64,000 nt of DNA from positions 310,001 to 374,000 of the forward strand of contig QPGO01000065.1 of the NCBI GenBank assembly GCA_008632985.1. Reading direction: 5' to 3'. The position numbers were made by a program, and so were the translations under genes. Origin of the DNA: Psammoneis japonica (lineage: Eukaryota). The notes under the pieces were generated by a model. That model worked only from the letters and a program-made list of their open reading frames with translations. It was not told where the DNA came from and did no database searches. Positions 1 to 35,198 of the stretch are shown here, piece by piece (the first letter of the stretch is position 1; every line of letters begins with the position of its first letter).

Positions 1-3000
1 CAGAACATGGTCTGTGGAGCAACAGCACTGCCGTGTCTGGTCAGTTGGGCACCATGTTGATGCTTTGGGGCAGAGCTTTGTGTGCACTTGCAGCAGTGAG
101 AAGCAACAAGCAGCTTGCAAACTTTGCACAACATTTGGAATTCAAAGGAGCACCACAAGTCACCAACTTTCTCTGGAGACATGGACAAGACAAGATGGAA
201 CAATTGCTTGCTCATTTTGCATCATGCCATCTTAATGCAAAATGTGCATTTCTCCCTGGTGATCACAAATTCATGCAGTGTCTCTGGTGGCTTGAGCCAA
301 GCACTTGTTGGGCAACTCTGTCCTTTGAAAATGGCTGTCACATTGTGCAGCTGCTGTGCATCAGCAGCAGCATGCTGAGGGAAAGGCAATCTCAACTTGA
401 GCCGACTTTTGAGTGACTTTTCTTGTGTCAACAACATGAGGGCGGGTGAGATCAAAAGCCACTCTTTTTTTTAGAGCACAGCTGTTGCAATGTGGACCCT
501 GATTTTTGCACAGTCACCAACTTGCAATTGCTTTGATGAGTGGGGAACAATGTCCCCCCGTGCATTTGCAAATGCTTTGACATGCTGACAAGGCTCTCAC
601 CAGAGCACATCAAACCAAGTGGCTGCTCTCTTCATTTTGCCCCACTTTTGTTGCACCAACAATTGCTCCACAACACAAAGGGTCATCATCTTGGGGAGCA
701 AAGTTTTCTGTTTGTCTCTGCATGAGCAAACAAGCCAACAAAATCTTCCATTTGTTTGTGTGTGGCTGTTCATTGGGAGCCTGTGAGATGCAACAAGTCA
801 GAGAGTGTTTTTCTTCTGTCTTGCACAAAGAGAACACAAAGAGAGACACACTGTGACTCACCTTTTTTCTCTGGAAACATGGACAAGACAAGATGGAATG
901 GTTGCTTGCATCATGTTGTTTGATGTCATGCCACAACAATGCAAAAGATGCATTTCATTCTCCCCAGCAGAGCAGAGCTCAATTTGAGGCCCAGTGTGAA
1001 TTAAGACCCTTGTGCTGTCAGGCTCAAATGATGGATGATTCAAGGCAAGAGCTCCACAAAAACATCACAGGAACAGTGTGCGATGAATGGTCAATGGCCA
1101 TTTCCACCTGCAGTGCAGCTGCAAAAAGGTGACTGTGCTGCCACAAATGGAGGTCCAAATGAACAACACTGCACCAATCCTCATCATGTTGATGCATGGG
1201 TGGATCCTGAGCAGCTTCATTGCTGCAGTCCATGGATCAATTGGCTTGCTCCTCATGGCTCTCCTCTGTTTCTCCAGTGCCTCTCATTGAACTCTTCTGG
1301 CTTTTGAAAATTTCAACTGGTTTCTCCTTGTTGCGCTGACCTTCATGAACAAAGATGACACAGTCAACAAACATGACAGAGCACATTCTTCTGTCTTTGG
1401 ATGCTCATTTGGCAGGGCCATGGCGCATCTTTTATGTCACGTCAATGCAGTGCAGGGATCCTGCACAGGACACAGTGCCAATTCCATGCATGTGATGTGG
1501 AGGGCCTTGAATCATGACCATGTTGTCATCCTTGCTTGTCGGACGTTTTGGTTCACATGCCAAAACTCATCAACCACCCAGATTTGAAAAAGTGGAACAA
1601 CTTTTTTTCTGACAAGTTCAATGTGATCTTTCATGCAAATGCACAAAAGTGTGAAATTCGCGCGCATCATGTTGTCTGCATGGGTGCAGTTCTTGGCCGG
1701 GCCTCAACTGCGCTCCACTCTAGAAGTTGTTGCAAATTCATGCTTTCCACTTTCTGTGCAGTCTCTGTGGTGGCTGCTGGCTAGAGAGGTGCTGTCAGTT
1801 GAAGTGAAACGTCATCATGCACGCATGCCAACCACTCAAATTTTCAAAAATTCTCCGCACAAATTGGTGCTTTCTCAAACCCCTCACCCGGCACATCCCA
1901 GAACTGCCACAAAAAAAAGGTGAGGGACCTGGATCCTTTTTTAAAAGGTGAGTTTCTTGACACCCTCCTGGATCACATGCTGAAAAAGGATCCAGGGAAA
2001 CAAAGAGAAAGATCTCATTTCCCCGGAAAAGGAACATGGCTCTCATTTCTTTGCGACATTGCACAAAAGTTAGGATGCTGCACACACTTTGCTCTGACAT
2101 GGCCCTGGCAGCAGTCTGGCACATTTTGTTTGGTCTTCAGGATGAAGTGTGGATTTGCACATTGGACGATCTGGGTCTCATTGATTGCAATTGGCCATGT
2201 TTGTTCTGGACTTTGTCCGCAAGGTGTCGGCTGCTCGAGCCGCCTTTAAACCCCGACCTTTGCATCAGAAGAGGCTGCTTTCAATGTTGATCGGGTTGCT
2301 TTCTTGATTCATGTGTCATGTGCCGAGAACCTGGACAATTTAAATTGGGAGCTCAAGATAAAATGCACCAACCTCATCAAAGACGGAAATGACATCCTTG
2401 TCTTGTCCCTGTGATTCAAGCTGCAGAAAATGCCGGTGCATGCTGCACCCATCTGAGAAGCGCTGGTCCAACCGTCATGACATTGAGCAGTGGCGCTTCT
2501 GGAGATGTCTTTGCACAGCACAAGAAGGAAAGGAAAGGGTTGATTCTGCGGTGGCCAAGGCCATGAGGGAGATTGCTGACTCACTCGGCATTCTTCAAAA
2601 AATCCACATGACTAACGCCGCCAATGAGGGCGCACGGGCTGTCAAGGTCGAACCGCCCATTCTTCTGGAGAGATCACTTGTTGAGACAACATCTAAAGAA
2701 AGGCACCCTTGTGCTTGGTGTCTCTAACTTTAACTTTTAAACTGCACAACAAACTTGCACACCGTGCTGGTGAACAAACATCGCCTTTGGAGATCAACGC
2801 TTTAGCACTGCGAACTCAAGGGGAACTTCGCACCCGCCTTCCACCGACAGCTTTGCGAGGAGATCCCCACGCTAAGTAAATTTGACTTGGCACTCCTCTG
2901 TTGACATGTCCTTCATGAATCGTCGTGAGAAATGACCCCATCCAACATGTGAACCTGTTCCGGTTCATCCAAGTCAATCATGAGTTGTTTGGACAGCTTA

Positions 3001-3370
3001 TCTTCAATGTTCTGAGACGTGACAACACCTGGATGAACCACATGAGTGTTGGGATCGACTTTACACCTCTAAGCTACGCCCCAACAGGACGGGTTTCGGT
3101 TTAGCACGGACCAAAAAGAAATCACTATCACACAGTGTATGATGTCCAGTGCACCACTCACCTCTTTGCGCCACAAGTAATCAGAGCGGTAGACTGGTGA
3201 CGAGAATGGAGACCTGGACATTTAAAAAACGGGGGACAGCGCGCACGCGCACAGAAACACGAAATTCCGATTCAAAAAACCAACCGTCACCATGACCGTC
3301 AGTTTGTTGCGTCCGTCTCATCCCGGTGGTCTGCATTAATGTTGTTGCTGCATGACACATCCATTTCATC
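1..3370. other. TpA-depleted (and largely CpG-depleted) degenerate repeat/TE-derived block
   Basis: Manual count: 3 TpA in bases 1-1200 (TTAA, TTAG, TTAA). ORF-track peptides here contain essentially no Tyr and are Cys/His/Trp rich. Internal diverged repeat ~160-260 vs ~860-965 (ctctggaRacatggacaagacaagatggaa). Confidence 0.85.
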
Positions 3371-5717
3371 CGCTATGGGCATAAAAGGCTGCCAATTGCT
3401 GGTGTGTCACCTTGTCGAGAAGGATGGAATGTCGTTTGATGACTGATGACTCATGCACCGTTTTGCGGCACAGAGCGACGGTGCGTGATAGAGAGACGCT
3501 GCATTTGTATGTTGACGCCAGTTGGCTTGTCTCGGAAACATGTCAATCTCATCAGTGGACCCATGCCGTTGGGAGATGGTGTGCAGTCGGTGCAGCTGAT
3601 GGATTTGTGGATGGTGCAGCACTTGGCATGACTGCAGGCATGCGTGACGGTGACGGCACCGGTCAGTGCGACAAAGCTCCCATCACGTTTCGTATAAGTT
3701 GTCCTCGTCATCAATCAAAACGGTACAGGTGCACACGCGAAGAATTGTTAAAATCTGTGGTTGGCATTCTGGTGCCTCCGCCCGCATGGAGAACAAGGAC
3801 AAAAAGTGGCTTGTTGACTTGAAACTGCATCACGTCGAAGTTGTGTTGTTTATCCAGCCAATTGCACTGGCGGCGGTTGGAGCCTGTGTACTACTGTCAA
3901 TCAATGTGGTTGTATCCTTTTTATCTGGTGGCGGTGGGTACCCCTGCATGCTACTTTTGCTGGTGGTGGTTGGAGCTTTTTTGCGACTAGGCCCCAGCAG
4001 TGGTAGAAGTGGGAGCTTATGTACTGCCAGCACTGGTGGCGGTGGGAGCCTGTACCGGTACAGTAACACCACTGGCACTGGAGGTGGTTGGAGCCTTTTG
4101 CCACTAGCACTGGTGGCAACAGGTGCCTGTGCACTGCTGTTGTAGCACTGGTGGCGGGCGGTGGGAGCCTGTGTAGCTGCCAGCACTGGCGGCGGTTGGA
4201 GCCCGTGTACTGCTAGCAAAATCGAGGTGGTTGGATCCTTCTATCTGGCGGCGGTGCCTGCCCCTGTATAATGCTGGCACTTGTGGTGGTTGGAGTGTTT
4301 CTACTGCTGACACTGGTGGCAGTGGGAGCCTGGTTACTACTTCTAGCACTGGTGGCGGTGGGAACCTTCGTAGCTGCTGGCACTGGTCGAGTCGGTTGGA
4401 GCGTGTGTAGGCTACTGCCAGCAATCGAGGCGGTTGGAGCCTTTTTGTCTTTGTCTGCTGCTGGCACTAGTGGTGGTTGGAGCGTTTCTGCTACTAGAGC
4501 ACTGGTGGCAGTGGGAGCCTAGTTACTGCTAGCACTTGTGGCGGTGGGAACCTGCGTGGCTGCTAGCTAGCACTGGTCGAGGCGGTTGGAGCGTGTGCAG
4601 GCTACCACCAGCAATCAAGGCGGCTGGAGCCTTTTTGTCTTTGTCTGCTGCTGGCACTGGTGGTGGTTGGAGCGTTTCTGCCACTAGAGCACTGGTGGCA
4701 GTGGGAGCCTAGTTACTGCTAGCACTTGTGGCGGTGGGAACCTGCGTGGCTACTAGCTGGCACTGGTCGAGGCGGTTGGAGCGTGTGTAGGCTACCACCA
4801 GTAATCGAGGCGGCTGGAGCCTTTTTGTCTAGTGGCAGTGGGTATCTCTGTGTGCCACTGGCACTGGCGGTTGACAGTGGGAGCCTGGTTGCTGCTGCCG
4901 GTGGCACTGGTGCGGTGGGATGCCGGCACAGGCACTGGAGGCGGTGGGATCCTCATGCTACTAGCACTGGTGGCAGCAGGTGCCTGTGCACTACTGCTGT
5001 AGCACTGGTGGTGTTGGGAGCCTGCATGCCACTGGCGCTGGTGGTAGTTGGAGCCTGTGCACTACTGGCTATCGAGGCGGTTGAATCCTTTACAATACGA
5101 TCACAAAGACACACTGCTAGAAGTGCTGGATCACGACAGACACTTAGAAGCAGTCAATTTCAAACCGGTAAAAGAATTTCCAAAGACAATGTAGAATAGC
5201 AGTGGATAGAATTGCATCATTAAATGTGATTACTTGATAGATGATCGAGTCGAAACCGCATTGTTGAATGCGCAGCACACTGCACCACCAACTTTAAAAA
5301 AAGTCTAGCGTGTTTCATTTGCACTCTGGTGTCAACTGCTTCCATCTGAAAATCGTCCATGCCAGATCCGCCCGAGTTCTTGTTATCTAGGAACCTGCGC
5401 CATTGAGCAAGCGTAAGCTGGCATCAAGGTCAACTCGAACGCTCCGACGTGAACGAGCATGTGACACATGGCTTGCCTTTGGGTTCCAGGCTAATTTTAT
5501 GCACAATCCTTCAATGTAAATATGTAACATCAATGACTGCTTCTTTGTGCTGACAATGAAGGAGTTGTTTTGCACTATCTTGTTGTCTCTTACAACCTTT
5601 TCAACTGCCTTTCTCGCAACCGCTTGATGTCGGATCTTTTGATGTGCTTGTGTGTTTTTCGATTTTTCGCGCAGCGCCGCGCTGTCCCCCGTTTTTTAAA
5701 TGTCCAGGTCTCCATTC
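3204..5717. mobile_element. Non-autonomous TIR DNA element, 2.5 kb, perfect 40-bp terminal inverted repeats and 4-bp target-site duplication ACGA
   Basis: 3204-3243 GAATGGAGACCTGGACATTTAAAAAACGGGGGACAGCGCG is the exact reverse complement of 5678-5717. ACGA at 3200-3203 and at 5718-5721. No transposase ORF recognised inside. Confidence 0.85.
3850..5085 (-). repeat. Low-complexity tandem repeat, minus strand encoding broken TQAPTATSA-type Thr/Ala/Pro/Ser repeats (mucin-like pseudogene cargo), with a 190-bp higher-order unit
   Basis: Recurrent gcactggtggcggtgggagcc motif. The near-identical unit gYaatcRaggcggYtggagcctttttgtct recurs at 4421, 4611 and 4801. Frames are broken by stops and shifts. 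Confidence 0.75.
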
Positions 5718-6089
5718 ACGATTGAAGTTGCCTTGGAATAGGTTGTCATGGTGGCAAAGACAAAATCCATATTTGGTAACAAGCCTCGTTGGCCTTGTTG
5801 AGGCAGCATCTTTTGCTCGTGTGGAGTATCTGCATCAGTTTCGATCACTTCTTTATCGAGTTTGGTGGGGCTTAAAATCATTCCGCTCGTGTACATGGAC
5901 GGAAGCAGTGGTTTTGTGTTAGTAGCATTTCCTACTGATGCCTCTGATAGACATGAGTTGAGAAAGGACGAAACCGCATCAAGCCTTGAAACTTTTTCAG
6001 TCGTCGGAGAAACAGACAGAATCGCCTTGGCCGACCAAGGACCTGCCTGAGAGTTTGATACTCTCTTTGTCAAATGAAGCATTGAAGCA

Positions 6090-7824: not shown

Positions 7825-10032
7825 GGTAAAGCACCCAGAAGCCCAGAAGGAAACCAGCAACTTGCCAACGAAACACAGTCACTGCCTGCATGTTGGACGC
7901 AGGACGCACAGCGCTTTCAAGATGAGCCGTAGAAATAGCCTGTACTGTACGGAACGGTCGGAGACATTTCTACATAAAGGAGGGAAGACATTTCTACACT
8001 TATAGGAGGGAAGAAGGGTCATTGCTCTTTGTTACGTTTGTTGTCAGTTGACACTTTCCTCATGGATTCTCATGGATCCTCTTCATACAAATCTACGAGC
8101 GGAACTGAGTAGGGCGGAGCAAGGTCATAATTACAAAAAGTCATTTTCATATACTGCGTTTGCTTCGTATAAAGTACGAGAGAAAGTCATTCAATTGACA
8201 AAACGGTCATTTTCTCAGTCATCCACATGAATCCACATGGTATAAATCTACGTACGAGAAATCAACGGTCAATGCAAAGAGTCATTCTCTAAACTCCGAT
8301 TCCTTCGTACAATGTACGTGAAAAGTCATTGAAAATTTCAAAATTTCCATGAGGATGACTGAGGATTCGTGAGGATCCGTGAGGATCCGTGAGAAAAAAA
8401 ACACACGACACAAACCCGACCCCCCAGGTCGCTGTTATGAGCTTAGCATCCAACGCCGTCGCGATCGCTGCTTTCTGTGGTTGTACTAGTACGTAGGTGT
8501 CGTGTGACTGAACCGTCACTTCAGCTGGGATCGAAGACATGTCGAGACCGCGACGCTGTCCCAGCCGACGGACAGTGGTCCTTGCTACGACAAGAACAAG
8601 AAACCCTGCCAAATCATCGATCTCTTTGGATTGTTGAATGCTCTTTCTCTACCGGAACGCTACATCATCACGACATGCCATCGTCTTGTGGTTTTGGTGA
8701 CGGATGAAATCGAGAGGTACCAGATAGTGGCTGCTGGAAGCAAGGTGAGCTTCTAAAGACAGACAACGAATCTGGAAATGGCTGTCATCTAACTGAGACA
8801 CCGCTCATTGTTTTTACAATTCTATGGGTTTTTTGTGGAATCAATATGCAGACTGCTAAGTTGAAATTTCGAAGACTCACCTTTACGAAGGAGCAGGAGC
8901 AGGCGAAAAAAAGAGGACGCTAAAGCCGCTCGACGCGTTCTTTTCTGTGTTTTGGACACGAGTTTGCGTCTGCTACACCCCTAAATGCCTTACGTGACTG
9001 AGACTTGCGGATTGACCTCGGATGGAAGCTGTAAGAACTTTCGAATGTTTTCAGGCTCTCATTCGAAGTATCCGTAACACGAGGGCTGAGTACAACGTTA
9101 AGCCGGGGAGCGAACCAGGGCGACTGTAGTCGCGAGCGAAGATCTGCTTTAGGACATTGAAACAGAGCTCAAATCTCTTGTTGCTCTTGCTAAGCTCGAC
9201 CCGGATAAGGTAGCTGTGCGTGCAGCTGGAAGTAAAGATGCCAAAGAAATGATGGAGATTGGCGAGTCTGTTAAGATTGTAGTCCAAGATGGCGTTAAAG
9301 CGAATTTGCCGCTCTCGGGATTGATTGACGCTGAGAAGGAACGCCAGTGGTTGCAAAAACAAAGCGAAAAGCTGACAATGGAGATCCAGAAGCTTACATG
9401 GAGATTGAAGTCCAGTGGATTTGTTGATAAGGCACCTGCTGCTGTTGTACAGCAAGCCAGGATTAGCTTGCAACACTGGAAGATCACTTTTCCTAAATCG
9501 AAAGCAGCCTTTTGGCATTTCCCAAGTAGAACTCTCAGATTTCGTCTTATCTATATAGAGCATCTCTCTAGCTAGTTCAAAACTAACTTCACGTCTTCTT
9601 CCCCAGATTTGATGATTGAGGAAGGGGTTATGGCAACTGAATGCTGAACAAGACACATTGTCAAGAACAGAATAAGGCGAGCGAAGCTTACAATTGAACC
9701 GCCGACTATTACAAACTACTCTCCTTGGTAGAGGGAGTTTTAGCATTACTTTCGAACATGCAAACTTAGTCGATTGCAGTTGTACGACGTCGATGGACGT
9801 TCCCACATGCCAGAATTGCAAAACATGCTTTGCATTGACATTCAATGTTCAGATACATCTCAACTTGACTAGAGCACAGTGCTCTACAGAACAAGGCAAT
9901 CAAAGGGAACCGCCGACTGTTGCAAATTACTCTCCCTCGTGCTCATCGAGGGAGCATTGGCATGAGTTTCAAACATGCACACATGTGCTAGATGGACGTT
10001 GCTAGAGGGCCCAGCAGCAACAACATCGCGAC
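7825..10032 (+). repeat. Segmental duplication copy A (inverted relative to copy B 20750-23160 and copy C 37636-39540)
   Basis: Near-identical ORF translations in all three places (e.g. MTLSSWILMDPL..., ...ERQWLQKQSEKL...). Copy A lacks ~320 bp at ~8640 that is present in B and C. Confidence 0.95.
8640..9480 (+). pseudogene. Valyl-tRNA synthetase C-terminal fragment (copy A), intron retained, with stops and a deletion
   Basis: SLPERYIITTCHRLV; gtgag...intron; LDTSLRLLHP*MPYVTE; LIRSIRNTRAEYNV; LPLSGLIDAEKERQWLQKQ...RLKSSGFVDKAPAAVV (ValRS anticodon-binding domain and coiled-coil arm). Confidence 0.85.
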
Positions 10033-12190
10033 GCCTGCCAACTTGCTTGCCAATGCGTTGACATTGCATGGATTGCTGATTTGCTTGGGGTGTGCTGTGC
10101 GTCAAACCGTGGGAGGAGAACTGGTCAGTTATGAAGACATTTACACAAGCGTGACCAGTCCAAGTCCTCATCGGGACCAATGGCATTTGTTGTTCATCGG
10201 AACAAGTGCATGACATGACGTGCAGGATTCAGCATGTTGGTTTGGACCTGGCCGGGAATTGGACCTTGCGTTTTTCGCTGGTCCCTGCGTGCTTGTTTGT
10301 GTCTTCTGTGCAGGTGTTGCTGTTTGAAGGCTCCATTGCACCTGCCAGGTCCTTTGCAAGAGGCGGCCCATGGAGAATTTAAACATGAGCTGTTCTTTGC
10401 CTTACTTTCTCTGAAGCCTTCTTTGGCATGGTGTGGTGGAAGGGTTTTGGAGATTCCGCTCAGAAGGTCTTCCAACTGGCTGCTTGGCCACCTCTGTGCA
10501 ACTGTCATTGTTGCGGGCATTTGCACCTTTCCACTGCCCATTCTCCCACTCTTCAAACTGCTTTTCATTCCATGACTATTGCTGCAGATCACCGGCATCC
10601 CAGCCCATCCAATCAAGATGCGCGTTCTGACGCTGCCATCAACACGCAACTTTCAATCGGCTCTCTGTGTGTCTGCTCGCGATTGTCATGGCATGCACCG
10701 TGGATTGCCAGCTGGACAAGGTGGTTTGTCTCATGGGATCAATGCTGGGTTGTCCCATCTTGGTCTTTCCGCCGCAGAATTTGCAATCGGCTGGATCCCA
10801 ACATTGCACCTTCGAGAACGTTCTTGAATGACGTCGTGTCGGGGATGGGTTTCATTGCAATGGTCGTTGCATCCACAATCACCATTCTCACATGGAACAA
10901 CAGATGAAACAGATGCTCGAGCAACACATCCCTTTCTTTTTAACTGATGGAGACTTCATTGGACTTTAACAACTTTGCCTTGACGTCTTCATTGGATGCC
11001 TTGTCCGGCATGTCTTCATTCAATGCTTGTTTTGGTTCCGGTGACGACCCGCCAGAGTCACAAAGGGGTCCTTTAGAGCCAAAAAGCGAGATTCGCCCGA
11101 GCTCTTTCGAACTTCCTTGCAGGTCCTGCGACATGTGCTCAACTCTCTCCAAGCCAAGCCGTTCAAGCATGGAAGTGGCTTTCTTGCTGCATCGCTGCCT
11201 GCCTTTTGAGCTGGTTTTGTTCGGCCATCACAGCACTTCTTCGTCAATCTGATTTTGTTGCTCAACCATGGATCCTGTGACAAAAGGAGCGGAGAGAGCC
11301 CGTTGTTTGATCAAAGTCCGGTTCATGCTTCGTTCCTTCATTTTGGACATTCCTTCACAACCGCGCATGTAAAACAGGCTCCTTCTCCAAGCAACCATGC
11401 CGACTTGACTTCGCCTCACGTGGCATCATCCCCGGTTCCCTCCGAGTCTACTCGATCATCCACGAAAGCTCTCGGGTTTTGACGTCGACACTGTCATCAC
11501 ACGCCAGCAGCGACGGTTGACGACGATGATTGCACACTCTCGTTTGCGGCCTCTTCTCGCCCATGCCATTTGATGCACTGCTCACCATCGACACCAACAA
11601 ACTCCATTGTGTTGCTGATGACATTATGTACGGCAACAACTGCATTCATTCATCATTGGAGAATTCTGTTTTCAATGACACGTGTGCCAAATTCGCAAAG
11701 ACGTTTCGAGTGGGTCCACAATGTGACGCTCTCCCGTGAGACCTGGGCCCATGTGCGGCATGCGAAGTGTGGCACTTCAGATCTTCCCAGTCGCAGGTCT
11801 ACTCTAGTGGTCTCTCGACAGGAAAGAGTGTGAAGCATCCACTGGTTCTCTTTCACGCACATTGTTGAGACAACTGCTGTCGGTGTTTCCAAGTGACGGG
11901 ACACTGCACCAGCACCAGTGCAAGAATGATGACACTGAAATGCAAGTCCATGGCTCGACCAATGGTTGTTGGACAGCAAATAGTGGCAGGTGCCGTGCAT
12001 CATTGTTGCACATCTTGTCGCTCGAGACGACGTTGATGCGTGCTCCATGTGATTGCAAAATCTTGTCCGCAAAAGTTCAACACACTTCTTCCATTTCTTT
12101 TCTTGGTTGATGGAGGACGAGTTCCAGGTCTCGAAACTGAAAGCCAATGTTGCAATCACAGAACGACTTGCCCGCAATGTCACACCGGTA
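9760..12190. other. TpA-depleted block of degenerate, probably TE-derived sequence
   Basis: Very few TpA. Left edge aligns with TA-rich paralog 20750-21090 and shows directional TA>TG/CA changes. Confidence 0.85.
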
Positions 12191-12726
12191 AGCTTTTTCT
12201 CGATGCGATGCTGATGGTGCTTGCATCTTCAATCTGGCATCCTTTTTTTTGTTTGTGCTCTATCGCGTTCATCTTATCGGTTGTAGGCGTGTGTTCGCCA
12301 TCATGACAAATCAAAAACGTTCGTTACTGGAGCGTTTTTATTATTCAAAGTCATACGCGCTCTTTCTATACCTTATATATTAATGTTTTTTGAAACACAT
12401 AAAAATCATTTGATTAGATGGACTGAAATTTTCCAAAGGGGGTACATCACGATTTTTTTCAGTCGGACTAATCAAATTCAATTTTATATGCTATACGGCG
12501 CATAGGATATAAATTATATCTTCTACGTTGCCATAAAGAAGACTTTCATACCAATCTCATTTCCGTAGATATTGATTGAGACACAGATACGACGACGACG
12601 ACTCTTTGTGTAGGGCCCCTAAAGTAGAACACAACATCGTCAAAAAATACACCGTAGTCCTTACTACCGTAGCCCTAATCTTCTCTAATATAGTAGAGGG
12701 CCATCTACTAGAGTATGGAGTAGGGC

Positions 12727-14098
12727 CTACTTGACTGCTTGCTTCCCTTCCTTGTCAATTACTGGAAAGATTCGCATTGGATGTGCTTCCGTATTGAAGA
12801 CATGCTTGTTTAAAATGTCCACGGGTGTATCTGGATCCTGTAATAAATACAAATACTTGAGAGTCTCTGCCAAGAAGAAGGACTCCATCTTGTCTTGTGG
12901 CGGTCTGTTCACGTCTTGTACATTTTTCAACTGTCCATAGGCAATCTTGGTTTTGCAATACCGCTCGATTGCAGAAAATATTTCCCATCCCCATTCTCGG
13001 TACACTGGATCACCCGTGAGTTGATTGAGAATAAACATGGACTCGACCGCTTCCGGTCTCAAGAGATAATGAGGAGAGCCGTGACCAATCGCAAAGTCCT
13101 CGTCGGGGTGGAACTGAACCCATTCCGCCGAAATACCCGTGTTCATGCGAGCGTACATTTGATAGCACGTGTAGGTAAGAGCCTTTCCAGTCTTGAGGTC
13201 GCGTTGAGCTCGGTCCGAATCAAGGCCTTCCGGGTCCGTGTAGGCTCCAAGCGCGAGCAATCCTAAACGTAAAACAAGAAAAGCAAGCCATGGGATTGAA
13301 CATTCGGACCAACAATACTACCAGCATCAGACAACACGGGAGAAATGCGAAAAACTTACCTCCCATGAAGCAAACCAAATGGTCCATCTTGTGATCGATA
13401 CGAGCACTATTCTTGTCGGCAATGTAGGTGAGACCGGACGGCGTTGACGTGTGTAGCAATTCATCATGCATGCCCTGGATCGCCTTGTCATACATTTTTC
13501 GGTACATCGGTTCCGTCTTTCCGCCCTGCAACCACACCTTGAGCATGTACTCGTAGAAACTGTCCGCCATGGCCCCAAACGTAATTTTCTGATTGGCAAA
13601 GACAGGTTTATCCTGATGGTTCTTGACATAGTAAGGAAAGAGTCCATTTTTGGGTGACACACTGTCCATGATTTCAAAAATGTTGTTTGCTTTTGTGGCG
13701 TATTCTGGTTTGTTGATGGCCTTGGCAAGATACCGAAACTCGAGTTGCAATGTTCCAAACTCGGCAAGAATAGCATTGCCTCCAGCCCAACTAATGTTGC
13801 TTTTCGCCCCCGTTACCAAGTTGATTTGTCCACAGGGAATACCAGATGGTGAGTCGAATGCTTTAAACAATCGCTTTCCCAAATCCGATGCCTTGTCTAA
13901 AAACGCCTTGTCGCCCGACCAATCATACGCCGACAACAATCCGCTCAAACTCCGAATTGTCGTTTCAAAGACAGAGACTCCTCGCCCCGCATGTTCGTGG
14001 CGTAATTCATCCCTCACCCAATCTCTCGCCTTGTAGAATTCGTCCTTGAGTCCCATGAGCCACAAGGTATCCAGAGCATCCACCAGGGTAGTCCCCAT
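12727..14098 (-). pseudogene. GH47 alpha-1,2-mannosidase, 5'-truncated copy 1 (intron 13263-13359); spliced frame open but N-terminus replaced by a PPR fragment
   Basis: [84 protein letters not shown] are GH47 motifs; GTAAGT...TAG intron. Confidence 0.9.
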
Positions 14099-20749: not shown

Positions 20750-23160
20750 GTCGCGATGTTGTTGCTACTGGGCCCTCTAGCAACGTCCATCTAGCACATG
20801 TATGTATGTTTGAAACTAATACTAATGCTCCCTCGATGAGCACGAGGGAGAGTAATTTGTAATAGTCGGCGGTTCCCTTTGATTGCCTTATTCTGTAGAG
20901 TACTATGCTACCGTAGTCAAGTTGAGATATATCTGAATATTGAACATCATTACAAAGCATATTTTGCAATTCTGGCGTAGGAACGTCCATCGACGTCGTA
21001 CAATTGCAATCGACTAAGTTTGTATGTTCGAAAGTAATGCTAAAACTCCCTCTACCAAGGAGAGTAGTTTGTAATAGTCGGCTGTTCAATTGTAAGCTTC
21101 GCTCGCCTTATTCTGTTCTTGACAATGTGTCTTGTTCAGTATTCAGTTGCCATTACCCCTTCCTCAATCATTAAATCTGGGGAAGAAGACGTGAAGTTAG
21201 TTTTGAACTAGCTAGAGAGAGAGAGATATAGATAAGACGAAATCTGAGAGTTCTACTTGGGAAGTGCCAAAAGGCTGCTTTTGATTTAGGAAAATTGATC
21301 TTCCAGTGTTGCAAGCTAATCCTGGCTTGCTGTACTACAGCAGCAGGTGCCTTATCAACAAATCCACTGGACTTCAATCTCCATGTAAGCTTCTGGATCT
21401 CCATTGTCAGCTTTTCGCTTTGTTTTTGCAACCACTGGCGTTCCTTCTCAGCGTCAATCAATCCCGAGAGCGGCAAATTCGCTTTAACGCCATCTTGGAC
21501 TGCGATCTTAACAGACTCGCCAATCTCCATCGTTTCTTTGGCATCTTTACTTCCAGCTGCATGCACAGCTACCTTATCCGGGTCGAGCTTAGCAAGAGCA
21601 ACAAGAGATTTGAGCTCTGTTTCAATGTCCTCAAGCAGATCTTCACTCGCGACTACAGTCGCCCTGATTCGCTCCCCGACTTAACGTTGTACTCAGCCCT
21701 CGCGTTACGGATACTTCGAATAAGAGCCTGAAAACATTCGAAAGTTCTTACAGCTTCCATCCGAGGTCAATCCGCAAGTCTCAGTCACGTACCGGTAAGG
21801 CATTTAGGGGTGTAGCAGACGCAAACTCGTGTCCAAAACACAGACAAGAACGCGTCGAGCGGCTTTAGCGTCCTCTTTTTTTCGCCTGCTCCTGCTCCTT
21901 CGTAAAGGTGAGTCTTCGAAATTTCAACTTACCAGTCTGCATATTGATTCCACAAAAAACCCATAGAATTGTAAAAACAATGAGCGGTGTCTCAGTTAGA
22001 TAACAGCCATTTCCAGATTCGTTGTCTGTCTTTAGAAGCTCACCTTGCTTCCAGCAGCCACTATCTGGTACCTCTCGATTTCATCCGTCACCAAAACCAC
22101 AAGACGATGGCATGTCGTGATGATATAGCGTTCCGGTAGAGAAAGAGCATTGAATTCTTCTTCTGTCATCGGTCCATCTACACTCCGCTCAGATAAGTTC
22201 GATTCGCTCAAGTCTCTCAGAGCGCTGCCCTTTACAAACTTGCAACAATTCCAAAGCTTGTTTGCAAAATTACGATTGGCCTCGATCTTCTCCATGTTGA
22301 GTGGAATATGTTGTCCCGGCGTGACATCGCCACCCCGCGGGGCTCTGGGCTGCCATCGGTGGAAGGTATCGAACTCAGGTTGCTGAGGCAGGTATGGAGC
22401 TGGTAGTCATCAATCTTGTCCTCCTTACTGGCCACAGCTACTCCTGTCACCGCTTCCTATTGGGGGGCATCCAACAATCCAAAGAAATCGGTGATTTGGC
22501 AGGGTTTCTTGTTCTTGTCGTAGCAAGGACCACTGTCCGTCGGCTGGGACAGCGTCGCGGTCTCGACATGTCTTCGATCCCAGCTGAAGTGACGGTTCAG
22601 TCACACGACACCTACGTACTAGTACAACCACAGAAAGCAGCGATCGCGACGGCGTTGGATGCTAAGCTCATANAGCGACCTGGGGGTCGGGTTTGTGTCG
22701 TGTGTTTTTTTCTCACGGATCCTCACGGATCCTCACGAATCCTCAGTCATCCTCATGGAAATTTTGAAATTTTCAATGACTTTTCACGTACATTGTACGA
22801 AGGAATCGGAGTTTAGAGAATGACTCTTTGCATTGACCGTTGATTTCTCGTACGTAGATTTATACCATGTGGATTCATGTGGATGACTGAGAAAATGACC
22901 GTTTTGTCAATTGAATGACTTTCTCTCGTACTTTATACGAAGCAAACGCAGTATATGAAAATGACTTTTTGTAATTATGACCTTGCTCCGCCCTACTCAG
23001 TTCCGCTCGTAGATTTGTAGGAAGAGGATGCATGAGAATCCATGAGGAAAGTGTCAACTGACAGCAAACGTAACAAAGAGCAATGACCCTTCTTCCCTCC
23101 TATAAGTGTAGAAATGTCTTCCCTCCTTTATGTAGAAATGTCTCCGACCGTTCCGTACAA
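20750..23160 (-). repeat. Segmental duplication copy B
   Basis: Reverse complement of ~7945-10032 and direct copy of 37636-39398; contains one N at 22673. Confidence 0.95.
21300..22325 (-). pseudogene. Valyl-tRNA synthetase C-terminal fragment (copy B)
   Basis: TPGQHIPLNMEKIEANRNFANKLWNCCKF; SLPERYII; intron; LWNQYADW*VEISK; LRLLHP*MPY; LIDAEKERQ...GFVDKAP. Confidence 0.9.
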
Positions 23161-23399
23161 AACCAGTACATACTTCTACTACTGTATCGTACAGTGAACC
23201 GACATCAATGTTTGCACGACCTTTTCGATCCGTCGAAGGATGACTATTCTTTTTATCTTTCCCCCTAATCAGACATACTGAGCTCACCATTACGACGTCA
23301 AGTGCTTGTAGTGGGCCTACGACCAGCCTCTTAGGTGGTTCGCTTGCGCGTCGCTTGGTATTTACCGTATGGCGGGTGATGGTGATAGTACGGCCGGTG

Positions 23400-23900
23400 C
23401 TCATGGTTGGTCTTTGCGGTGTGTTGTGAAAGACATGTGGAACAAAAATTGTGTGGGATTCTACGCAGGTCTCTCTGGTCACCCGGAATTGAGGACACCT
23501 GTGACATTTTTGGCGACCGCGGACAGCGCAATCCCCATGATTCCCATGATGATGTTGGAAGCGACGCACAATCACAGCACTGTGAATTGGAAAGGAGCCT
23601 CTCGACTTTGTTGTCAGAGATCTTCTGCTCGTGAAAATGTCTTGGTTCAGCACTTTGTTGCTTGTGGTTTTTGAATTGTTGCAATTTCATTCTTTTGTTG
23701 TTGGGAGATGATGAATGTTGTGCAATTTAGAGCCATTCTCAACTGTGGCACTCAGCGTTACTTCGAAAGACCCCACTCTAGTTGCCGGGCAAAAAACACT
23801 CGAGCGCAATTTGGCGGGGTCGCTGCAGATTTTCGTGAGGCGTCCGTCCTTGTGGAGAAGCATTTTGTTGCGTTGGGGTGGACTTTTCTCCTGTGCCATC
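23400..23900. other. Small TpA-poor patch
   Basis: Only a handful of TpA over ~500 bp, against TA-rich flanks at 23160-23390 and beyond 24270. Confidence 0.5.
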
Positions 23901-27995: not shown

Positions 27996-29060
27996 ATGCT
28001 GTCCACCACTCGAGAAATCCTCGTTAAGCATGCCACACGCCGTTCCTACTCGTCGAGTACTGTTCTTCAAGAAAGGCTCGTGATCGCCGTTGGAGGCAAC
28101 GCACTGCAACGTCGTGGTGAGCGCCTAACGATTGAAAACATGCTAAAAGCGTCAGCCGACATGGCGCCCACAATTGCTCAGTTGGCGGCAGAGCATCAAG
28201 TGGTACTGACGCACGGAAATGGTCCTCAAGTCGGTGAACTCGCCTTGGAACGGTCGGCTGCCACTTTTGATATTCTCGGGGCGGAGAGTATGGGCCAAAT
28301 AGGATTTGTACTGGCACAGGCGTTGGCATCCGTGGGGTGTCACGCTGTACCAATTCTGACCCAAGTTGTGGTCGATCAACAAAGTGATGCGTTCAAAAAT
28401 CCAACAAAGTTTGTTGGTCCGATTTATGGAATGAAGGAAGCTCATGCTCTTGCCGAACAGCTGCATTGGACTGTCAAGGCTGACGGGGAATACTATAGAC
28501 GTGTTGTCCCATCTCCGCCACCGCTAGAAATCTTACAACTGGAAGCGATTCGAACCCTCTTGGAAGAGCAACCTGATTGCCTTCCTATTGCATGTGGCGG
28601 CGGCGGAGTTCCTGTGGCTCGAGTCCCATCATGTCCCAGCACGTTGGTTGGTGTCGAGGCAGTCATTGACAAAGACATGTGTGGGGCTCGTCTAGCGGTA
28701 GATCTAGAAGCTGACGGACTCATCATCTTGACAGATGGAGGTGGTATATGGGAGAAGTTCGGCAAACCAGACGCTCGAGAAATGTCAAGTGTCACACCCG
28801 AGTATCTCGAAGGGACCAAGGCTGGCAAGTCCTTTCCTGGAAGTATGGGCCCGAAAATCCAAGCTGCCATTAATTTTGTCAACGAATCAAAGTCTAGTTC
28901 TGCATGGGCCGCTATCGGTGACTTGAAAGACGCAGCAAAGATAATGTCAAATGAGGAAGGCACGTTTGTCAAGAAGGACGTTGAGGGAGGAGTCGTTTGG
29001 AGAGCCGGGAAGTCGGGCCCACAATCTCGACCGACCAAGGAACCTCACAAGTCAGGATGA
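27996..29060 (+). CDS. arcC: Carbamate kinase with probable mitochondrial transit peptide
   Basis: LVIAVGGNAL, LTHGNGPQVG, NPTKFVGP, YRRVVPSP, CGGGGVPV, GVEAVIDKD, GSMGPKI. Confidence 0.95.
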   Translation: MLSTTREILVKHATRRSYSSSTVLQERLVIAVGGNALQRRGERLTIENMLKASADMAPTIAQLAAEHQVVLTHGNGPQVGELALERSAATFDILGAESMGQIGFVLAQALASVGCHAVPILTQVVVDQQSDAFKNPTKFVGPIYGMKEAHALAEQLHWTVKADGEYYRRVVPSPPPLEILQLEAIRTLLEEQPDCLPIACGGGGVPVARVPSCPSTLVGVEAVIDKDMCGARLAVDLEADGLIILTDGGGIWEKFGKPDAREMSSVTPEYLEGTKAGKSFPGSMGPKIQAAINFVNESKSSSAWAAIGDLKDAAKIMSNEEGTFVKKDVEGGVVWRAGKSGPQSRPTKEPHKSG

Positions 29061-29806: not shown

Positions 29807-30003
29807 CCAGCGCACAGAAGATTTGGCCAGATCATATTCGTCGTCTCGTGATCGATTCTTCTCGTGGTCTTCCGCAGGTGTATCGTCTCACTTCTTCAGC
29901 ATCGACCGCCCTCTCTGCTCGTTAGTAAGGTTGCGGCGCTCTGCGAGACAAGAAGAAGTGCTAACCCCCTTTCTAACGATGCCAAACTGGCGGAGTTATT
30001 ACT

Positions 30004-31356
30004 CCTGGTGGATGCTCTGGATACCTTGTGGCTCATGGGACTCAAGGATGAATTCTACAAGGCGAGGGATTGGGTACGGGATGAATGATTCGTGGCGGGG
30101 CGAGGAGTCTCTGTCTTTGAAACGACAATTCGGAGTTTGGGCGGATTGTTGTCGGCGTATGATTGGTCGGGAGACGAGGCTTTTTTAGACAAGGCGTCGG
30201 ATTAGGAAAGCGATTGTTTAAAGCATTCGACTCACCATCTGGGATTCCCTATGGACAAATCAATTTGGTAACGGGGGCGAAAAGCAATATCGGTTGGGCT
30301 GGAGGCAATGCTATTCTTGCCGAGTTTGGAACATTGCAACTCGAGTTTCGGTACCTTGCCAAGGCCATCAACAAACCAGAATACGCCACAAAAGCAAACA
30401 ACATTTTTGAAATCATGGACAGTGTGTCACCCAAAAATGGACTCTTTCCTTACTATGTCAAGAACCATCAGGATAAACCTGTCTTTGCCAATCAGAAAAT
30501 TACGTTTGGGGCCATGGCGGACAGTTTCTACGAGTACATGCTCAAGGTGTGGTTGCAGGGCGGAAAGACGGAACCGATGTACCGAAAAATGTATGACAAG
30601 GCGATCCAGGGCATGCATGATGAATTGCTACACACGTCAACGCCGTCCGGTCTCACCTACATTGCCGACAAGAATAGTGCTCGTATCGATCACAAGATGG
30701 ACCACTTGGTTTGCTTCATGGGAGGTAAGTCTTTTGCATTTCTCCCGTGTTGTCTGATGCTGGTAGTATTGTTGGTCCTCATTTTCAATCCCATGGCTTG
30801 CTTTCTTGTTTTACGGTTAGGATTGCTCGCGCTTGGAGCCTACACGGACCCGGAAGGCCTTGATTCGGACCGAGCTCAACGCGACCTCAAGACTGGAAAG
30901 GCTCTTACTTACACGTGCTATCAAATGTACGCTCGCATGAACACGGGTATTTCGGCGGAATGGGTTCAGTTCCACCCCGACGAGGACTTTGCGGTTGGTC
31001 ACGGCTCTCATCATTATCTCTTGAGACCGGAAGCGGTCGAGTCCATGTTTATTCTCGATCAACTCACGGGTGATCCAGTGTACCGAGAATGGGGATGGGA
31101 AATATTTTCTGCAATCGAGCGGTGTTGCAAAACCAAGATTGCCTATGGACAGTTGAAAAATGTACAAGACGTGAACGGACCGCCACAAGACAAGATGGAG
31201 TCCTTCTTCTTGGCAGAGACTCTCAAGTATTTGTATTTATTACAGGATCCAGATACACCCGTGGACATTTTAAACAAGCATGTCTTCAATACGGAAGCAC
31301 ATCCAATGCGAATCTTTCCAGTAATTGACAAGGAAGGGAAGCAAGCAGTCAAGTAG
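30004..31356 (+). pseudogene. GH47 alpha-1,2-mannosidase, 5'-truncated copy 2 (intron 30725-30820), with a stop and frameshifts in the first 200 bp
   Basis: Near-identical to the reverse complement of 12727-14088. Indel and TGA at ~30086, 1-nt deletion near 30205. Homology to copy 1 flank continues to ~32075 (vs ~11965). Confidence 0.92.
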
Positions 31357-33449: not shown

Positions 33450-33590
33450 CAGTGTGTCTCGGCAGGCACGGACTTGAGCTGCTTGCAACCAGAGAGACTC
33501 AGTTGTTGAACCTCCGGGAGCCACTTCGCATCTGACGTCAAGGCTGCAATGTCCACATTTGAAAAATCGAGCGAAACATCCTGCCTTGCT
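33450..33590 (-). pseudogene. Possible leucine-rich-repeat fragment
   Basis: VSLDFSNVDIAAL...LPEVQQLSLSGCKQLKSVP fits LxxLxLxxCxxLxxxP. Confidence 0.35.
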
Positions 33591-35198
33591 TGTCGTGTTT
33601 CATTGTGGTGGCCAATCTCGCTCGCGACACGGGCTTGGCCCATGCGGCAAGAGCAAGTGTGGGGCTTGGCACAATTTTGACTCGCTGCAAGTAGAAGTGC
33701 AACACACGTTCAATCCGTTCAATGCGAGATTCTCTTCCATGGTAGAATTGCGGATTGTTGTGCTGTGTTTTGACACACATTGGAGAGCAACACCCGAAAT
33801 CGCAGTGTGGAAGCAGGAAAAAAGAGTTCTTGGCCAAGAGATGTCTTGTTTGGAGAGTGCGAGCTGCTGTCGCCGCCGTTCGAGTCAATGCTTCACCGGG
33901 TTGGGTGAACACTTGCCAAACGTTTTGACTGCTTTTGGTTGCTCTGCCAACCGTCTTTCTTTGTTGTCAAGGCTTTCTCGGCGATCGGATGATCATTGAA
34001 TGGAGGCGTGGGAGGAGGGAGAGGCCAGTGGATCGATTTGTCTGCTGGGACTGCGAGCTTTGTTGGGGTTGGGACATTGAATGGCATCAAGATGGGGCAG
34101 TCGGCCTCGGAGGATTGCATGACCCTCTGAAGGTGCTCGTGGGTTTTGGGTGGTGGACGTGCAGGTCCACCTAGAATCGGGTCGCCACTGTCAGGCAACG
34201 ACCGTGCGTCCCATTCTTGCTTGGGCTCCTGTCCGACGCTTCTGCACTTGGCTACCCAGTGGTCCATTTCTTGTGGAATTTGCGACAAAGAGGGGTGTGG
34301 AAACTTGACTGTTGACCCCATCTTCGAGTGGGGCACTTTTTCGTAATCTTGCTGCTTGCAAACGCATCGTGTCTGGGACCAAGAACGTGAAGCAAATTCC
34401 GATTTCTAAAGCTGCAGCAGCACATGCATTTCGGCAGAGGGGAATGTTGGCGGTTGGGGTGATTTGCCAAGGCTTGGGCACTGTCTGGCTCTCAAGAGGG
34501 ACAAAAGCCTGTTTCTGCATGACTCCGAACCGATGGCGTGACTCTTTTGCATTGAAATGTCGAACCGGGACATCACAAAAGATCTGTGGACACAAACAGC
34601 TCGAAAACCATCATTCCACTTCTCTTGGAGCCCAGTGGATCTGGCCAAATTGATGAAGCAGGGAGTGTGTCATCTCCGTCACGAGGACACCAAGCATGGC
34701 AATGTGGGACCTCTTGCTGTGGCACTTGGTGGCTGGACCGCACTGGACGGGACCGCTGCAACGAAGCAAATGAATGACTCGCAATTGCTTCCTGTTGCCT
34801 TTGTCAGTGACACTGAGTCGCTGTTTTGACGATGAGTGGCACTCTGTGTCGCACATTGTGTCTTGTCAACGAGCGTCTCTAGGTGACAATCAACAGGGTG
34901 CGTGGTGCCAAGCGGTGCATTCTTTGAACACGTGTTCATTTGTGATGATTTCTTGTCATTAATCTGACAATTGTGGAGCTTGTCTTTCATGCTCTCTTCC
35001 TCCCCTGGGATTGCGTGACAGATCGCATGAACTCTCGGAACTGATGGGTTGTGCGACTCGACAGAATCGTCACTGTGAGTCGCACCAACTTAGTGTGGTT
35101 CGGGCATCAGAGACACCAACCTCGTTTGAGTTCTTGGGCGCATTCCGCGATTCCAGAGGCAAGAAAGAAGAACGGTTAGACAAGCTCCACGTAAACCT

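Follow-up and report, generated by a model that had tools for sequence, protein, structure and literature searches.

Discrete blocks of TpA loss with a graded four-base context in a 64,000-nt window of the Psammoneis japonica genome

Layout and composition of the TpA-erased blocks

The DNA that we analysed (the window: 64,000 nt of Psammoneis japonica contig QPGO01000065.1) contains four blocks from which the TpA dinucleotide has been nearly erased, together with the copies of two duplicated segments, X and Y, that reach into two of these blocks, and tandem satellite DNA that makes up much of the last one. The features are as follows.

1–2880, no strand: block A, TpA- and CpG-erased; left edge outside the window
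8634–9803, no strand: spill-over zone in duplicate X1, with low-density erasure upstream of block B
9804–12255, no strand: block B, TpA-erased with CpG mostly retained (TA O/E 0.14, CG O/E 0.58–0.83)
20750–22154, minus strand: duplicate X2, the untouched paralogue of X1
23463–23727, no strand: small patch that may be a mini-block, with no TpA over a gap of 266 bp
30004–32075, minus strand: duplicate Y2, paralogue of Y1 (11965–14087), carrying a copy of a GH47 mannosidase gene (Pfam GH47)
31860–37190, no strand: block C, TpA-erased with normal CpG
35199–37112, minus strand: orphan open reading frame (ORF) of 637 aa with a single Tyr, in block C
54951–64000, no strand: block D, TpA- and CpG-erased; left edge sharp (~130 bp), right edge outside the window
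57494–61988, plus strand: tandem satellite of ~190-bp units in block D (TRF periods 187–195, ~70% matches)
63052–64000: second satellite array, in block D

Observed-to-expected (O/E) values are dinucleotide or tetranucleotide counts against base composition, and the block map covers the 64,000-nt window. Inside the blocks, which range in size from 2.5 to >9 kb, TA O/E in 1-kb windows was 0.02–0.14, reaching 0.20 at the graded edge of block A; outside them TpA occurred at ~40 per kb (1,767 in 43,746 nt). AT, AA and TT remained near expectation inside the blocks, and TG and CA rose to O/E 1.4–2.3 (1-kb windows), a gain that almost exactly offsets the loss of TpA. The first three 1-kb windows of block A had TA O/E of 0.03, 0.07 and 0.20 and CG O/E of 0.08, 0.28 and 0.60, with TG and CA at 1.4–2.0. 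The corresponding values for block D, which is largely the 190-bp satellite, were 0.02–0.08 for TA, 0.02–0.23 for CG, 1.7–2.3 for TG and 1.4–2.0 for CA. CpG is therefore depleted in A and D as well, whereas B and C largely keep it (TA O/E 0.07–0.11 and CG O/E 0.65–1.15 across 32001–37000 of block C).

The erasure domains are discrete. At 55000 the TpA count per 250 nt falls from 15 to 1; at the edge of block C, across 31500–32250, the successive counts are 27, 5 and 3. The sharpness of the edges varies, from ~130 bp up to ~1.4 kb of graded spill; the right edge of block A is of the graded kind, with partial erasure reaching ~3700. In the patch at 23463–23727, CA and TG together amount to 19.9 per 100 nt, and a gap of this length is very unlikely at the outside density of ~40 TpA per kb. 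The sequence-only reading from which this work started dealt with positions 1–3370; the depletion extends past that segment and was found again in three further blocks.

Under the assumption that the ancestral composition of the blocks was similar to that of the rest of the window, blocks B and C together have lost 34.5 TA and 4.1 CG per kb and gained 39.7 TG+CA per kb. The balance also closes within flanking-base classes (R, purine; Y, pyrimidine): 11.8 RTAY per kb were lost against 12.6 RTGY+RCAY gained, and 18.3 RTAR+YTAY were lost against 19.9 gained. GC content is ~4–10 points higher in B and C than in neighbouring 1-kb windows (0.51 in block B against 0.41–0.46 in its flanks; 0.50–0.53 in block C against 0.41 and 0.47), as expected from AT-to-GC changes. 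The loss is nevertheless specific to the TpA step, with AT, AA and TT left near expectation, so that the sequence-only reading was right to set aside GC-biased drift.

Gene content and origin of the blocks

None of the 106 block ORFs of at least 80 aa has a credible Pfam domain (0 of 15 in block A), five having weak matches below the curated cut-offs, and no reverse transcriptase or integrase domain is among them. The 637-aa ORF of block C likewise has no Pfam domain; a word-indexed search limited to lengths of 350–1115 returned no homologue, and an exhaustive search of representative sequences two marginal matches (E 6e-4 and 9e-4). Because the change removes TAA and TAG and creates no new in-frame stops, long open reading frames persist in the blocks, where they can mislead gene prediction.

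Blocks B and C lie at equivalent junctions of a duplicated segment, and their sequences are unrelated. Compared by blastn as candidate diverged copies of each other, they matched in the shared flank only, and a comparison in purine/pyrimidine code gave 50–52 bits against 44–56 bits for 10 shuffles. At the edges of B and C no convincing repeats were seen, neither terminal inverted nor long direct ones. The targets are orphan DNA and satellite in which no virus or transposon was recognised; degraded foreign DNA is a possible identity.

Direction of change in the duplicated segments

The near-identical copies of X and Y record the direction of the change. X1 and X2 align over 1,396 positions with 49 substitutions, and Y1 and Y2 over 2,072 positions with 52; block B spans the final 230 bp of X1 and the initial 290 bp of Y1, and the block-proximal end of Y2 enters block C. 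Taking X2 as the reference for the ancestral TpA sites of X1, we found TA opposite CA or TG at 22 sites, with TA lost in X1 at 21 and in X2 at one. The 21 losses in X1 comprise 12 changes to CA and 9 to TG, and 18 of them lie within 9610–10015. Three distal TA-to-CA changes (8663, 8786 and 9060) occur only in X1, both X2 and a third copy, X3, keeping TA. Between 8634 and 9599, conversion had affected 3 of 42 reference TpA. One further TpA was lost by transversion (TTAG to TGAG at 9964), which lies outside what deamination explains. Duplicates X2, X3 and Y2 are largely unaffected. TpA was converted to CA or TG, and the conversion acted on the DNA in place. A 264-aa ORF at 9051–9845 in X1 is closed in the X2 copy and is probably no gene.

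The frequency of conversion differed with the flanking bases. In the transition zone (9600–10032), CA or TG had replaced 9 of 11 RTAY, 4 of 7 RTAR, 3 of 10 YTAY and 2 of 7 YTAR sites; in Y1, both RTAY reference sites (2/2) and neither RTAR site (0/2) were converted.

Independent mutation of satellite units

The satellite of block D gave 30 nhmmer hits, and 28 units were aligned. Among these units, 16 pairs of adjacent columns are dimorphic for CA and TG, 12 of the 16 having neither TA nor CG in any unit; of the other 31 double-transition dimorphisms, 30 include a one-step intermediate. The satellite units were mutated independently, after amplification.

These observations bear on the idea that the blocks inherited their composition, as foreign or selfish DNA shaped elsewhere by selection against TA (through restriction or other nucleases, or against UpA in RNA) and then inserted. 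Such a history would fit the position of the unrelated blocks B and C, which sit at equivalent duplicate junctions as insertions would, and the fact that no host-like gene is recognisable in the blocks. We consider it very unlikely, because the erasure runs into X1 and Y1, host duplicates that have TA in their other copies, because the satellite units were struck one by one once amplified, and because B and C are not bounded by terminal inverted or direct repeats. Depletion of TpA to 2–14% of expectation, moreover, far exceeds the avoidance known in viruses.

Sequencing support

Read support comes from contigs of one sample, sequenced on an unrecorded platform, and this sample may be the assembly's own source. 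In sequencing run X1 (unconnected with duplicate X1), contigs with a word depth of ~80–600 reproduce the TpA-free sequence with their own choices of CA or TG at some sites: a contig of 433 nt matches positions 479–913 with 3 differences, and adjacent TG/CA swaps relative to the window occur at 649–650, 1652–1653, 2450–2451, 2675–2676 and 11155–11156. Contig depth is ordinary over blocks B and C. Sequencing run X2 is RNA-like, its contigs jumping short CT..AC intervals; they give no cover on 1–2668, although contigs cannot prove absence.

We asked whether the blocks could be an artefact of assembly or base-calling, in which dense modification at TpA (and CpG) is misread by a signal-based sequencer and the true DNA has TA. 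In its favour, the blocks fall on repeat or satellite DNA, a kind of sequence that is frequently modified, all read support stems from a single sample and from contigs of unrecorded platform, and the best run contains only 54% of the 31-mers sampled from 30000–37500. Against this stand the run X1 contigs, which replicate the TpA-free sequence and yet make their own CA/TG choices, and the scarcity of CG in blocks A and D, since TA would yield CG as well if strand-specific miscalls were merged column by column. Both the mass balance and the way in which the erasure grades into duplicate X1 resemble mutation, and the main text of a preprint on Bigelowiella natans (B. natans) reports the same signature from Illumina reads of mutation-accumulation lines (Mettrop et al., bioRxiv 10.64898/2026.01.13.699255). 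We therefore regard an artefact as highly improbable.

Flanking-base context of surviving TpA

The sequence-only reading had noted three TpA in positions 1–1200 and had proposed that YTAR sites are spared and that the others are removed by an enzyme-like specificity for 5′-TAY-3′ on either strand. There are exactly three TpA in that segment (TTAA at 233, TTAG at 472 and TTAA at 1002), where ~48 would be expected at the outside density. YTAR accounts for 16 of the 19 survivors in 1–2880, the others being TTAT (1433), ATAA (2359) and GTAA (2877), and for 20 of 30 across 1–3370; the run singled out at about 2722–2741 contains CTAA, TTAA and TTAA. Among TpA sites outside the blocks, no class is rarer than YTAR (298 of 1,766 NTAN, 17%), and the binomial p against this share is 2.8e-10 for 16/19 and 2.1e-9 for 20/30.

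The ranking of NTAN tetramers foreseen in the sequence-only reading, with RTAY lowest, RTAR and YTAY low and YTAR highest, is borne out by the 84 TpA pooled from the four blocks: O/E was 0.013 for RTAY (n = 4), 0.053 for RTAR (n = 16), 0.054 for YTAY (n = 16) and 0.160 for YTAR (n = 48). The order is opposite in the rest of the window (RTAY 0.746, RTAR 0.651, YTAY 0.650 and YTAR 0.416; Fisher p for the YTAR share inside versus outside, 8e-16). Blocks A and D show a strong bias: YTAR makes up 38 of 50 survivors, with p 2e-9 even when the expectation is taken from a first-order Markov model of the blocks themselves. In block D the share is 22 of 31, or 15 of 23 once copies of single satellite positions are collapsed. 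In blocks B and C the context bias is weak: YTAR makes up 20 of 51 survivors, which differs from the outside share (p 1.4e-4) and not significantly from the in-block Markov expectation (p 0.084).

YTAR thus survives best, yet it is slowed rather than spared, being still 2.5–3 times depleted (2.4–2.7 per kb in the blocks against 6.8 per kb outside), and direct conversions of this class are seen in X1 (TTAA to TTGA at 9610, TTAG to TTGG at 9958). A strict three-nucleotide TAY rule does not hold. At the 10 informative RTAR or YTAY sites lost in mutated copies, 7 products were those that TAY predicts and 3 were the opposite, and the compositional surplus is split ~61:39 between the two kinds; these splits rule out a one-flank model as an absolute rule. 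Since products of both kinds arise, both flanks contribute, and the context is a rate preference, with survival in the order RTAY < RTAR = YTAY < YTAR. The TpA-specific part of the original interpretation and its order of contexts hold up, the absolute three-nucleotide specificity does not, and the enzyme-like agent is a putative one. Fresh origin of the surviving TpA from CA or TG would give, from the flanks of CA and TG in the blocks, 23–26% YTAR; the observed shares are 40–74%, so de novo TpA alone cannot account for them.

The context also bears on RNA-level hyperediting, in which dsRNA would have undergone ADAR-like A-to-I changes and the edited copies would then have been reverse-transcribed and integrated. 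ADARs favour a 3′ G, and a purine in that position is disfavoured here. The change grades into flanking chromosomal duplicates and altered a tandem satellite unit by unit, and the 106 block ORFs lack reverse transcriptase or retroelement domains, as the blocks lack terminal repeats. Hyperediting is for these reasons extremely unlikely in our judgement, even though both strands are affected, as would be the case for dsRNA, and ADAR prefers a U preceding the edited A, as stated in the Discussion of the preprint (Mettrop et al.).

Separable loss of CpG

The losses of TpA and CpG are separable. Blocks A and D have a CG O/E of 0.02–0.28 and block C a normal one, B and C being TpA-poor with CpG kept; conversely, positions 4001–5000, the tandem-repeat core of an element, are CpG-poor (0.44) with normal TpA (1.16). 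A second, separable process has probably removed CpG in A and D, the simplest candidate being the deamination of methylated cytosines within repeats. Decay of methylated CpG would fit a CG-to-TG/CA loss limited to the repeat-like blocks A and D and the 4001–5000 core, but it leaves TpA alone and does not explain B and C. Vertebrate genomes have a CpG O/E of roughly 0.2, and most of block D, at 0.02–0.12, falls below that level. By context, CpG retention in A and D was lowest for TCG (0.09) and 0.21 for GCG, ~twofold apart.

Proposed mechanism and relation to known systems

We consider it probable that the blocks are chromosomal domains in which localised point mutation has struck TpA in place and almost to saturation, that is, TpA-specific hypermutation. 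Each event would turn TA into TG (A to G) or, when the same event falls on the opposite strand, into CA (T to C), the strands being used about equally. The neighbouring bases would set the rate, fastest at RTAY, intermediate at RTAR and YTAY and slowest at YTAR, and with long exposure the slow rate at YTAR would leave survivors that are mostly TTAA, CTAG, TTAG and CTAA. The simplest chemistry would be deamination of the adenine after T, perhaps by a DNA-acting deaminase aimed at silenced or foreign chromatin.

The attacked base might instead be the thymine: the T of TpA could be modified, for example by TET/JBP-type oxidation to a base resembling 5-hydroxymethyluracil, and then miscopied or misrepaired to C. 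In some algae the T in TpA is replaced by 5-hydroxymethyluracil. TA to CA and TA to TG are mirror images, so that sequence does not distinguish which base is attacked, and the palindromic optimum RTAY is compatible with either. We think attack on thymine quite unlikely, given that the main text of the B. natans preprint and passages of a paper on an ADAT2 deaminase (PMC10354150) contain no mutagenic T-to-C pathway of this kind, and that the authors of the preprint favour adenine deamination.

The closest parallel to TpA-specific hypermutation comes from B. natans. The main text of that preprint reports that two integrated viral regions acquired 231 de novo mutations in mutation-accumulation lines, of which 230 were A-to-G or T-to-C, all 230 on TpA, at a hypermutation rate of ~6e-7 per site per generation, and that the genome contains 124 clusters of TpA-poor, CpA+TpG-rich 1-kb windows (bioRxiv 10.64898/2026.01.13.699255). 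Hypermutation of the B. natans type is characterised by foreign targets (integrated virus, virophage or transposon) and by an ongoing rate ~1000-fold over the background. Shared with our blocks, as described there, are the exclusive, domain-confined loss of TpA to TpG or CpA on both strands and the long-term footprint of TpA-poor, CpA+TpG-rich clusters with mostly unannotatable genes. On this comparison, the footprint described here is best read as the long-term trace of B. natans-type TpA hypermutation in another organism. It differs in that it targets orphan DNA and a 190-bp satellite and spills into host duplicates; in near-complete erasure (O/E 0.02–0.14) compared with the Rho of 0.45 given in that text for their NCLDV region; and in the co-erasure of CpG in two blocks and the four-base context ranking. 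The main text of the preprint does not treat four-base context and has no mention of trinucleotide, context, flanking or CpG. A literature search on TpA depletion and hypermutation, including diatoms and genome defence, returned this preprint as the only relevant source; the SPLASH paper, which also came up, proved unrelated.

Repeat-induced point mutation (RIP) of ascomycete fungi resembles the process proposed here in being defence-like, domain-wise and specific for a dinucleotide, with transitions made on DNA in place and spreading to neighbouring sequence. RIP turns CpA into TpA, creating TpA and lowering GC, whereas here TpA was destroyed and GC raised, the opposite direction. In contrast to RIP, moreover, the near-identical duplicates X and Y were largely spared and the unique DNA between them was hit, so that duplication is not an evident trigger.

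For the putative deaminase, the TadA/ADAT2 family offers a candidate with partial resemblance. The tRNA substrate A34 of ADAT2 always follows U33, a TA-like context. Amphioxus BjADAT2/3 represents the one natural enzyme type for which deamination of A as well as C in DNA has been shown (PMC10354150). The cytidine context of BjADAT2 is TCG, which contains CpG, and in blocks A and D no CpG context is more depleted than TCG, though only ~twofold compared with GCG; its adenine context in DNA is GAA, not TA, with hairpin loops preferred (PMC10354150). A more far-reaching scheme, conceivable but unlikely, would have one chromatin-directed DNA-deaminase system erase both TpA (at adenine) and CpG (at cytosine), with B and C versus A and D as stages or states of a single RIP-like defence common to distant algal lineages, in place of a TpA process accompanied by ordinary decay of methylated CpG. 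If so, the palindromic four-base context, RTAY best and YTAR worst, would suggest a dimeric enzyme acting on dsDNA.

The sole report of TpA-directed hypermutation so far dates from 2026 and concerns a single chlorarachniophyte. Its footprint, here at saturation and outside B. natans, suggests that the process may be widespread in algae, and it constrains candidate enzymes: approximately equal use of the strands, a preference of RTAY over RTAR and YTAY over YTAR, in-place action, a satellite hit unit by unit, and independence from the loss of CpG.

With respect to the affiliation of the window itself, identity of a window gene was 69% to the best B. natans match, 72–74% to the nearest named hits, which are diatoms, and 84% to the best match of all; an ORF of 1,607 aa had no match at E 1e-10 or better. 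A carbamate kinase tree built from a quick search (52 of the 120 listed hits) supports only an affiliation outside B. natans that is probably diatom-like: the window falls among diatom sequences, and B. natans lies elsewhere, on a long branch.

TpA-erased blocks in the window

Dinucleotide profiles in 1-kb windows, together with TpA counts per 250 nt, delimited four stretches from which TpA has been almost entirely erased:

1–2880, block A (right edge graded)
9804–12255, block B
31860–37190, block C
54951–64000, block D

Within these blocks the observed/expected (O/E) ratio of TA was 0.02–0.14, rising to 0.20 where the edge of block A is graded, as against 0.43–0.80 across most of the window outside them. 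TG and CA reached O/E values of 1.4–2.3, and AT, AA and TT were close to expectation. Compared with the rest of the window, blocks B and C showed a deficit of 34.5 TA and 4.1 CG per kb and a TG+CA surplus of 39.7 per kb, which fell in the flank classes matching the lost sites; their GC content was approximately 4–10 points above that of the adjoining 1-kb windows. Two short TpA-free, CA/TG-rich patches outside the main blocks, at 23463–23727 (266 bp) and 3509–3692 (185 bp), could represent erased domains that are small or only starting to form.

Direction of change

The window has large inverted segmental duplications (95–98.5% identity) in two sets, X and Y, and the two GH47 mannosidase gene copies are among the duplicated sequence:

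7832–10032, duplicate X1
20750–23173, duplicate X2 (end at ~23159–23173; the one N of the assembly, at 22673, lies within it)
37544–39523, duplicate X3 (start at ~37544–37636)
11965–14087, duplicate Y1
30004–32075, duplicate Y2

Block B lies between X1 and Y1 and block C between Y2 and X3, that is, at equivalent junctions of the duplicated segments; the two blocks showed no relatedness to each other, even when recoded as purine/pyrimidine. Alignment of X1 with X2 (1,396 positions) revealed 49 substitutions. TA stood opposite CA or TG at 22 sites, and X1 was the copy without TA at 21 of them. Eighteen of these 21 losses fell in the last 420 bp before block B, and the three more distal ones were polarised by X3, in which TA persists. 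The products were 12 CA and 9 TG, indicating that both strands were used; one further TpA, at 9964, was lost by transversion. The change in the blocks is thus in-place mutation of TA to CA or TG.

Four-base context of TpA loss

The sequence-only reading had proposed an enzyme-like specificity that spares YTAR and erases TAY/RTA. The three TpA in 1–1200 were indeed TTAA, TTAG and TTAA, and 16 of the 19 in 1–2880 were YTAR, as it had described. Pooling the four blocks (84 TpA at the initial boundaries; O/E relative to base composition), we recovered the predicted order of RTAY (0.013), RTAR (0.053), YTAY (0.054) and YTAR (0.160), so that depletion of NTAN tetramers was not uniform after correction for composition. 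Outside the blocks the order was reversed (0.746, 0.651, 0.650 and 0.416, respectively), and the YTAR share differed between inside and outside with a Fisher P of 8e-16. With slightly wider boundaries, YTAR made up 58 of 101 TpA. The effect was strong in blocks A and D (38/50; P = 2e-9 even against the in-block Markov expectation), with YTAR still at 15 of 23 sites in block D after satellite copies were collapsed, and weaker in blocks B and C (20/51), where P was 1.4e-4 relative to the outside share but 0.084 relative to in-block Markov expectation. The initial observation is genuine and far from random.

Taking X2 and Y2 as proxies for the ancestral state, we scored the fate of individual sites in the transition zone (9600–10032), where X1 runs into block B, and in Y1. 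RTAY had been converted at 9 of 11 sites in the transition zone and 2 of 2 in Y1, RTAR at 4 of 7 and 0 of 2; for YTAY and YTAR the transition-zone counts were 3/10 and 2/7. Because two YTAR sites were converted, with changes at TTAA and TTAG directly observed, and YTAR density was 2.4–2.7 per kb in the blocks versus 6.8 outside, this class is slow rather than immune. The proposed motif therefore orders the classes correctly by loss (RTAY first, RTAR/YTAY next, YTAR last) but fails as an absolute rule. Given the flanks of CA and TG in the blocks, just 23–26% of newly made TpA would be YTAR, too few to account for the YTAR surplus, which requires a context-dependent loss rate. With the event expressed as A-to-G, the relevant flank can be read from the asymmetric classes: 7 of 10 informative sites had the product expected when a pyrimidine follows A (TAY), the other 3 had the one expected when a purine precedes T (RTA), and the compositional surplus had the same sense (12.2 versus 7.7 per kb). 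Both flanks seem to count, and the 3′ pyrimidine perhaps weighs more, on small numbers.

Satellite and CpG loss

Block D holds a 190-bp satellite, in 28 units of which 16 adjacent-column pairs were dimorphic for CA/TG, 12 of them without either intermediate (TA or CG); a one-step intermediate accompanied all except one of the 31 remaining double-transition dimorphisms. On the simplest reading, an ancestral TA or CG would have been resolved separately in each unit once the array had formed.

CpG O/E was 0.02–0.28 in the cores of blocks A and D; CpG was retained in block C (0.65–1.15) and mostly retained in block B (0.58–0.83), whereas at 4001–5000 CpG was scarce (0.44) and TpA normal (1.16). 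Each loss can therefore occur without the other, and CpG loss in blocks A and D is most simply ordinary methylated-CpG decay. Less probably, one dual-specificity system may lie behind both. The most depleted CpG context in blocks A and D was TCG (retention 0.09, approximately twofold below GCG at 0.21), and amphioxus ADAT2/3 deaminates DNA at C in TCG and at A in GAA, preferring hairpin loops, so the family can act on both bases (PMC10354150); its reported adenine context, GAA, differs from the TA lost here. The CpG remaining in blocks A and D was strand-asymmetric (RCGR 8, YCGY 29), and the satellite was markedly richer in A than in T (skew of +0.16 to +0.29 at 57001–62000 and 63001–64000); both may reflect satellite composition or a strand-biased process.

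Precedent and targets

A full-text literature search for TpA hypermutation returned one relevant study, that of Mettrop et al. (bioRxiv 10.64898/2026.01.13.699255). Of the 302 nuclear mutations in mutation-accumulation lines of Bigelowiella natans, 231 lay in one integrated giant-virus region and one virophage region, and 230 of these 231 were A-to-G or T-to-C, every one on TpA, at ~6e-7 per site per generation and in some lines only. The B. natans genome has 124 clusters of windows that are poor in TpA and rich in CpA+TpG and whose genes mostly lack annotation, and an ADAT2-like adenine deaminase was proposed. In the accessible text of that preprint the terms trinucleotide, context, flanking and CpG never appear, and a motif logo in its Figure 2B could already show flank preferences. 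The best explanation of the blocks described here is that B. natans-type TpA-to-TpG/CpA hypermutation, in another lineage, has left its saturated footprint. The process acts in place on satellite and unannotatable DNA and leaks into adjoining host duplicates.

The window is eukaryotic, with short-intron genes on both strands, and Pfam identified two GH47 mannosidases, a protein kinase, a Myb protein and a carbamate kinase, among others; no tRNA genes were found in it. The following frames and element are referred to below:

27996–29060, intact carbamate kinase ORF
35199–37112, minus strand, 637-aa open frame in block C
3201–5720, 2.5-kb element with 43-nt inverted repeats (3201–3243 versus 5720–5678, 97.7%)

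The top match of the carbamate kinase ORF had 84% identity, its nearest named matches were diatoms (Mayamaea, Cylindrotheca closterium and Cyclotella, 72–74%) and B. natans matched at 69%; a quick tree weakly fits a diatom-like placement. The source organism is accordingly taken to be something other than B. natans, probably a diatom or one of its close relatives.

Pfam searches of 106 block ORFs of at least 80 aa and a homology search of the 637-aa frame revealed no recognisable foreign genes in the blocks, and no mobile-element ends (terminal inverted or long direct repeats) were found at the edges of blocks B and C. The 637-aa frame matched no family or homologue in Pfam and protein homology searches. 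It has a single tyrosine, an internal 153-nt tandem duplication (35901–36206) and IQ-motif-like repeats. Because TAA and TAG are lost and no new in-frame stop is created, frames of this kind could persist in the absence of selection.

Read support comes from contigs of one public sample, of unrecorded platform and possibly the source of the assembly itself. These contigs matched the TpA-free sequence and differed from the window by adjacent TG/CA swaps at several places, which gives limited support against an artefact of this assembly. At 30000–37500 the best public run contained only 54% of sampled 31-mers, and its contigs were separated from the window by numerous fixed differences, most of which were transitions. 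The run may come from a different haplotype or strain, or errors may persist in the assembly. Part of block B (10612–11216) matched a contig of sequencing run X2 (4,303 nt, depth 30; runs X1 and X2 are distinct from the duplicates) at ~90%, with 59 other letters and 12 gaps, so the sample contains a diverged second copy of block B sequence. The core of the 2.5-kb element is GC-rich (0.595), CpG-poor and TpA-normal, with tandem repeats of ~190-bp period at 4272–4830. Contigs of runs X1 and X2 connect 3205 to 5714, bypassing the element, and thus show that there is an empty-site copy or allele.
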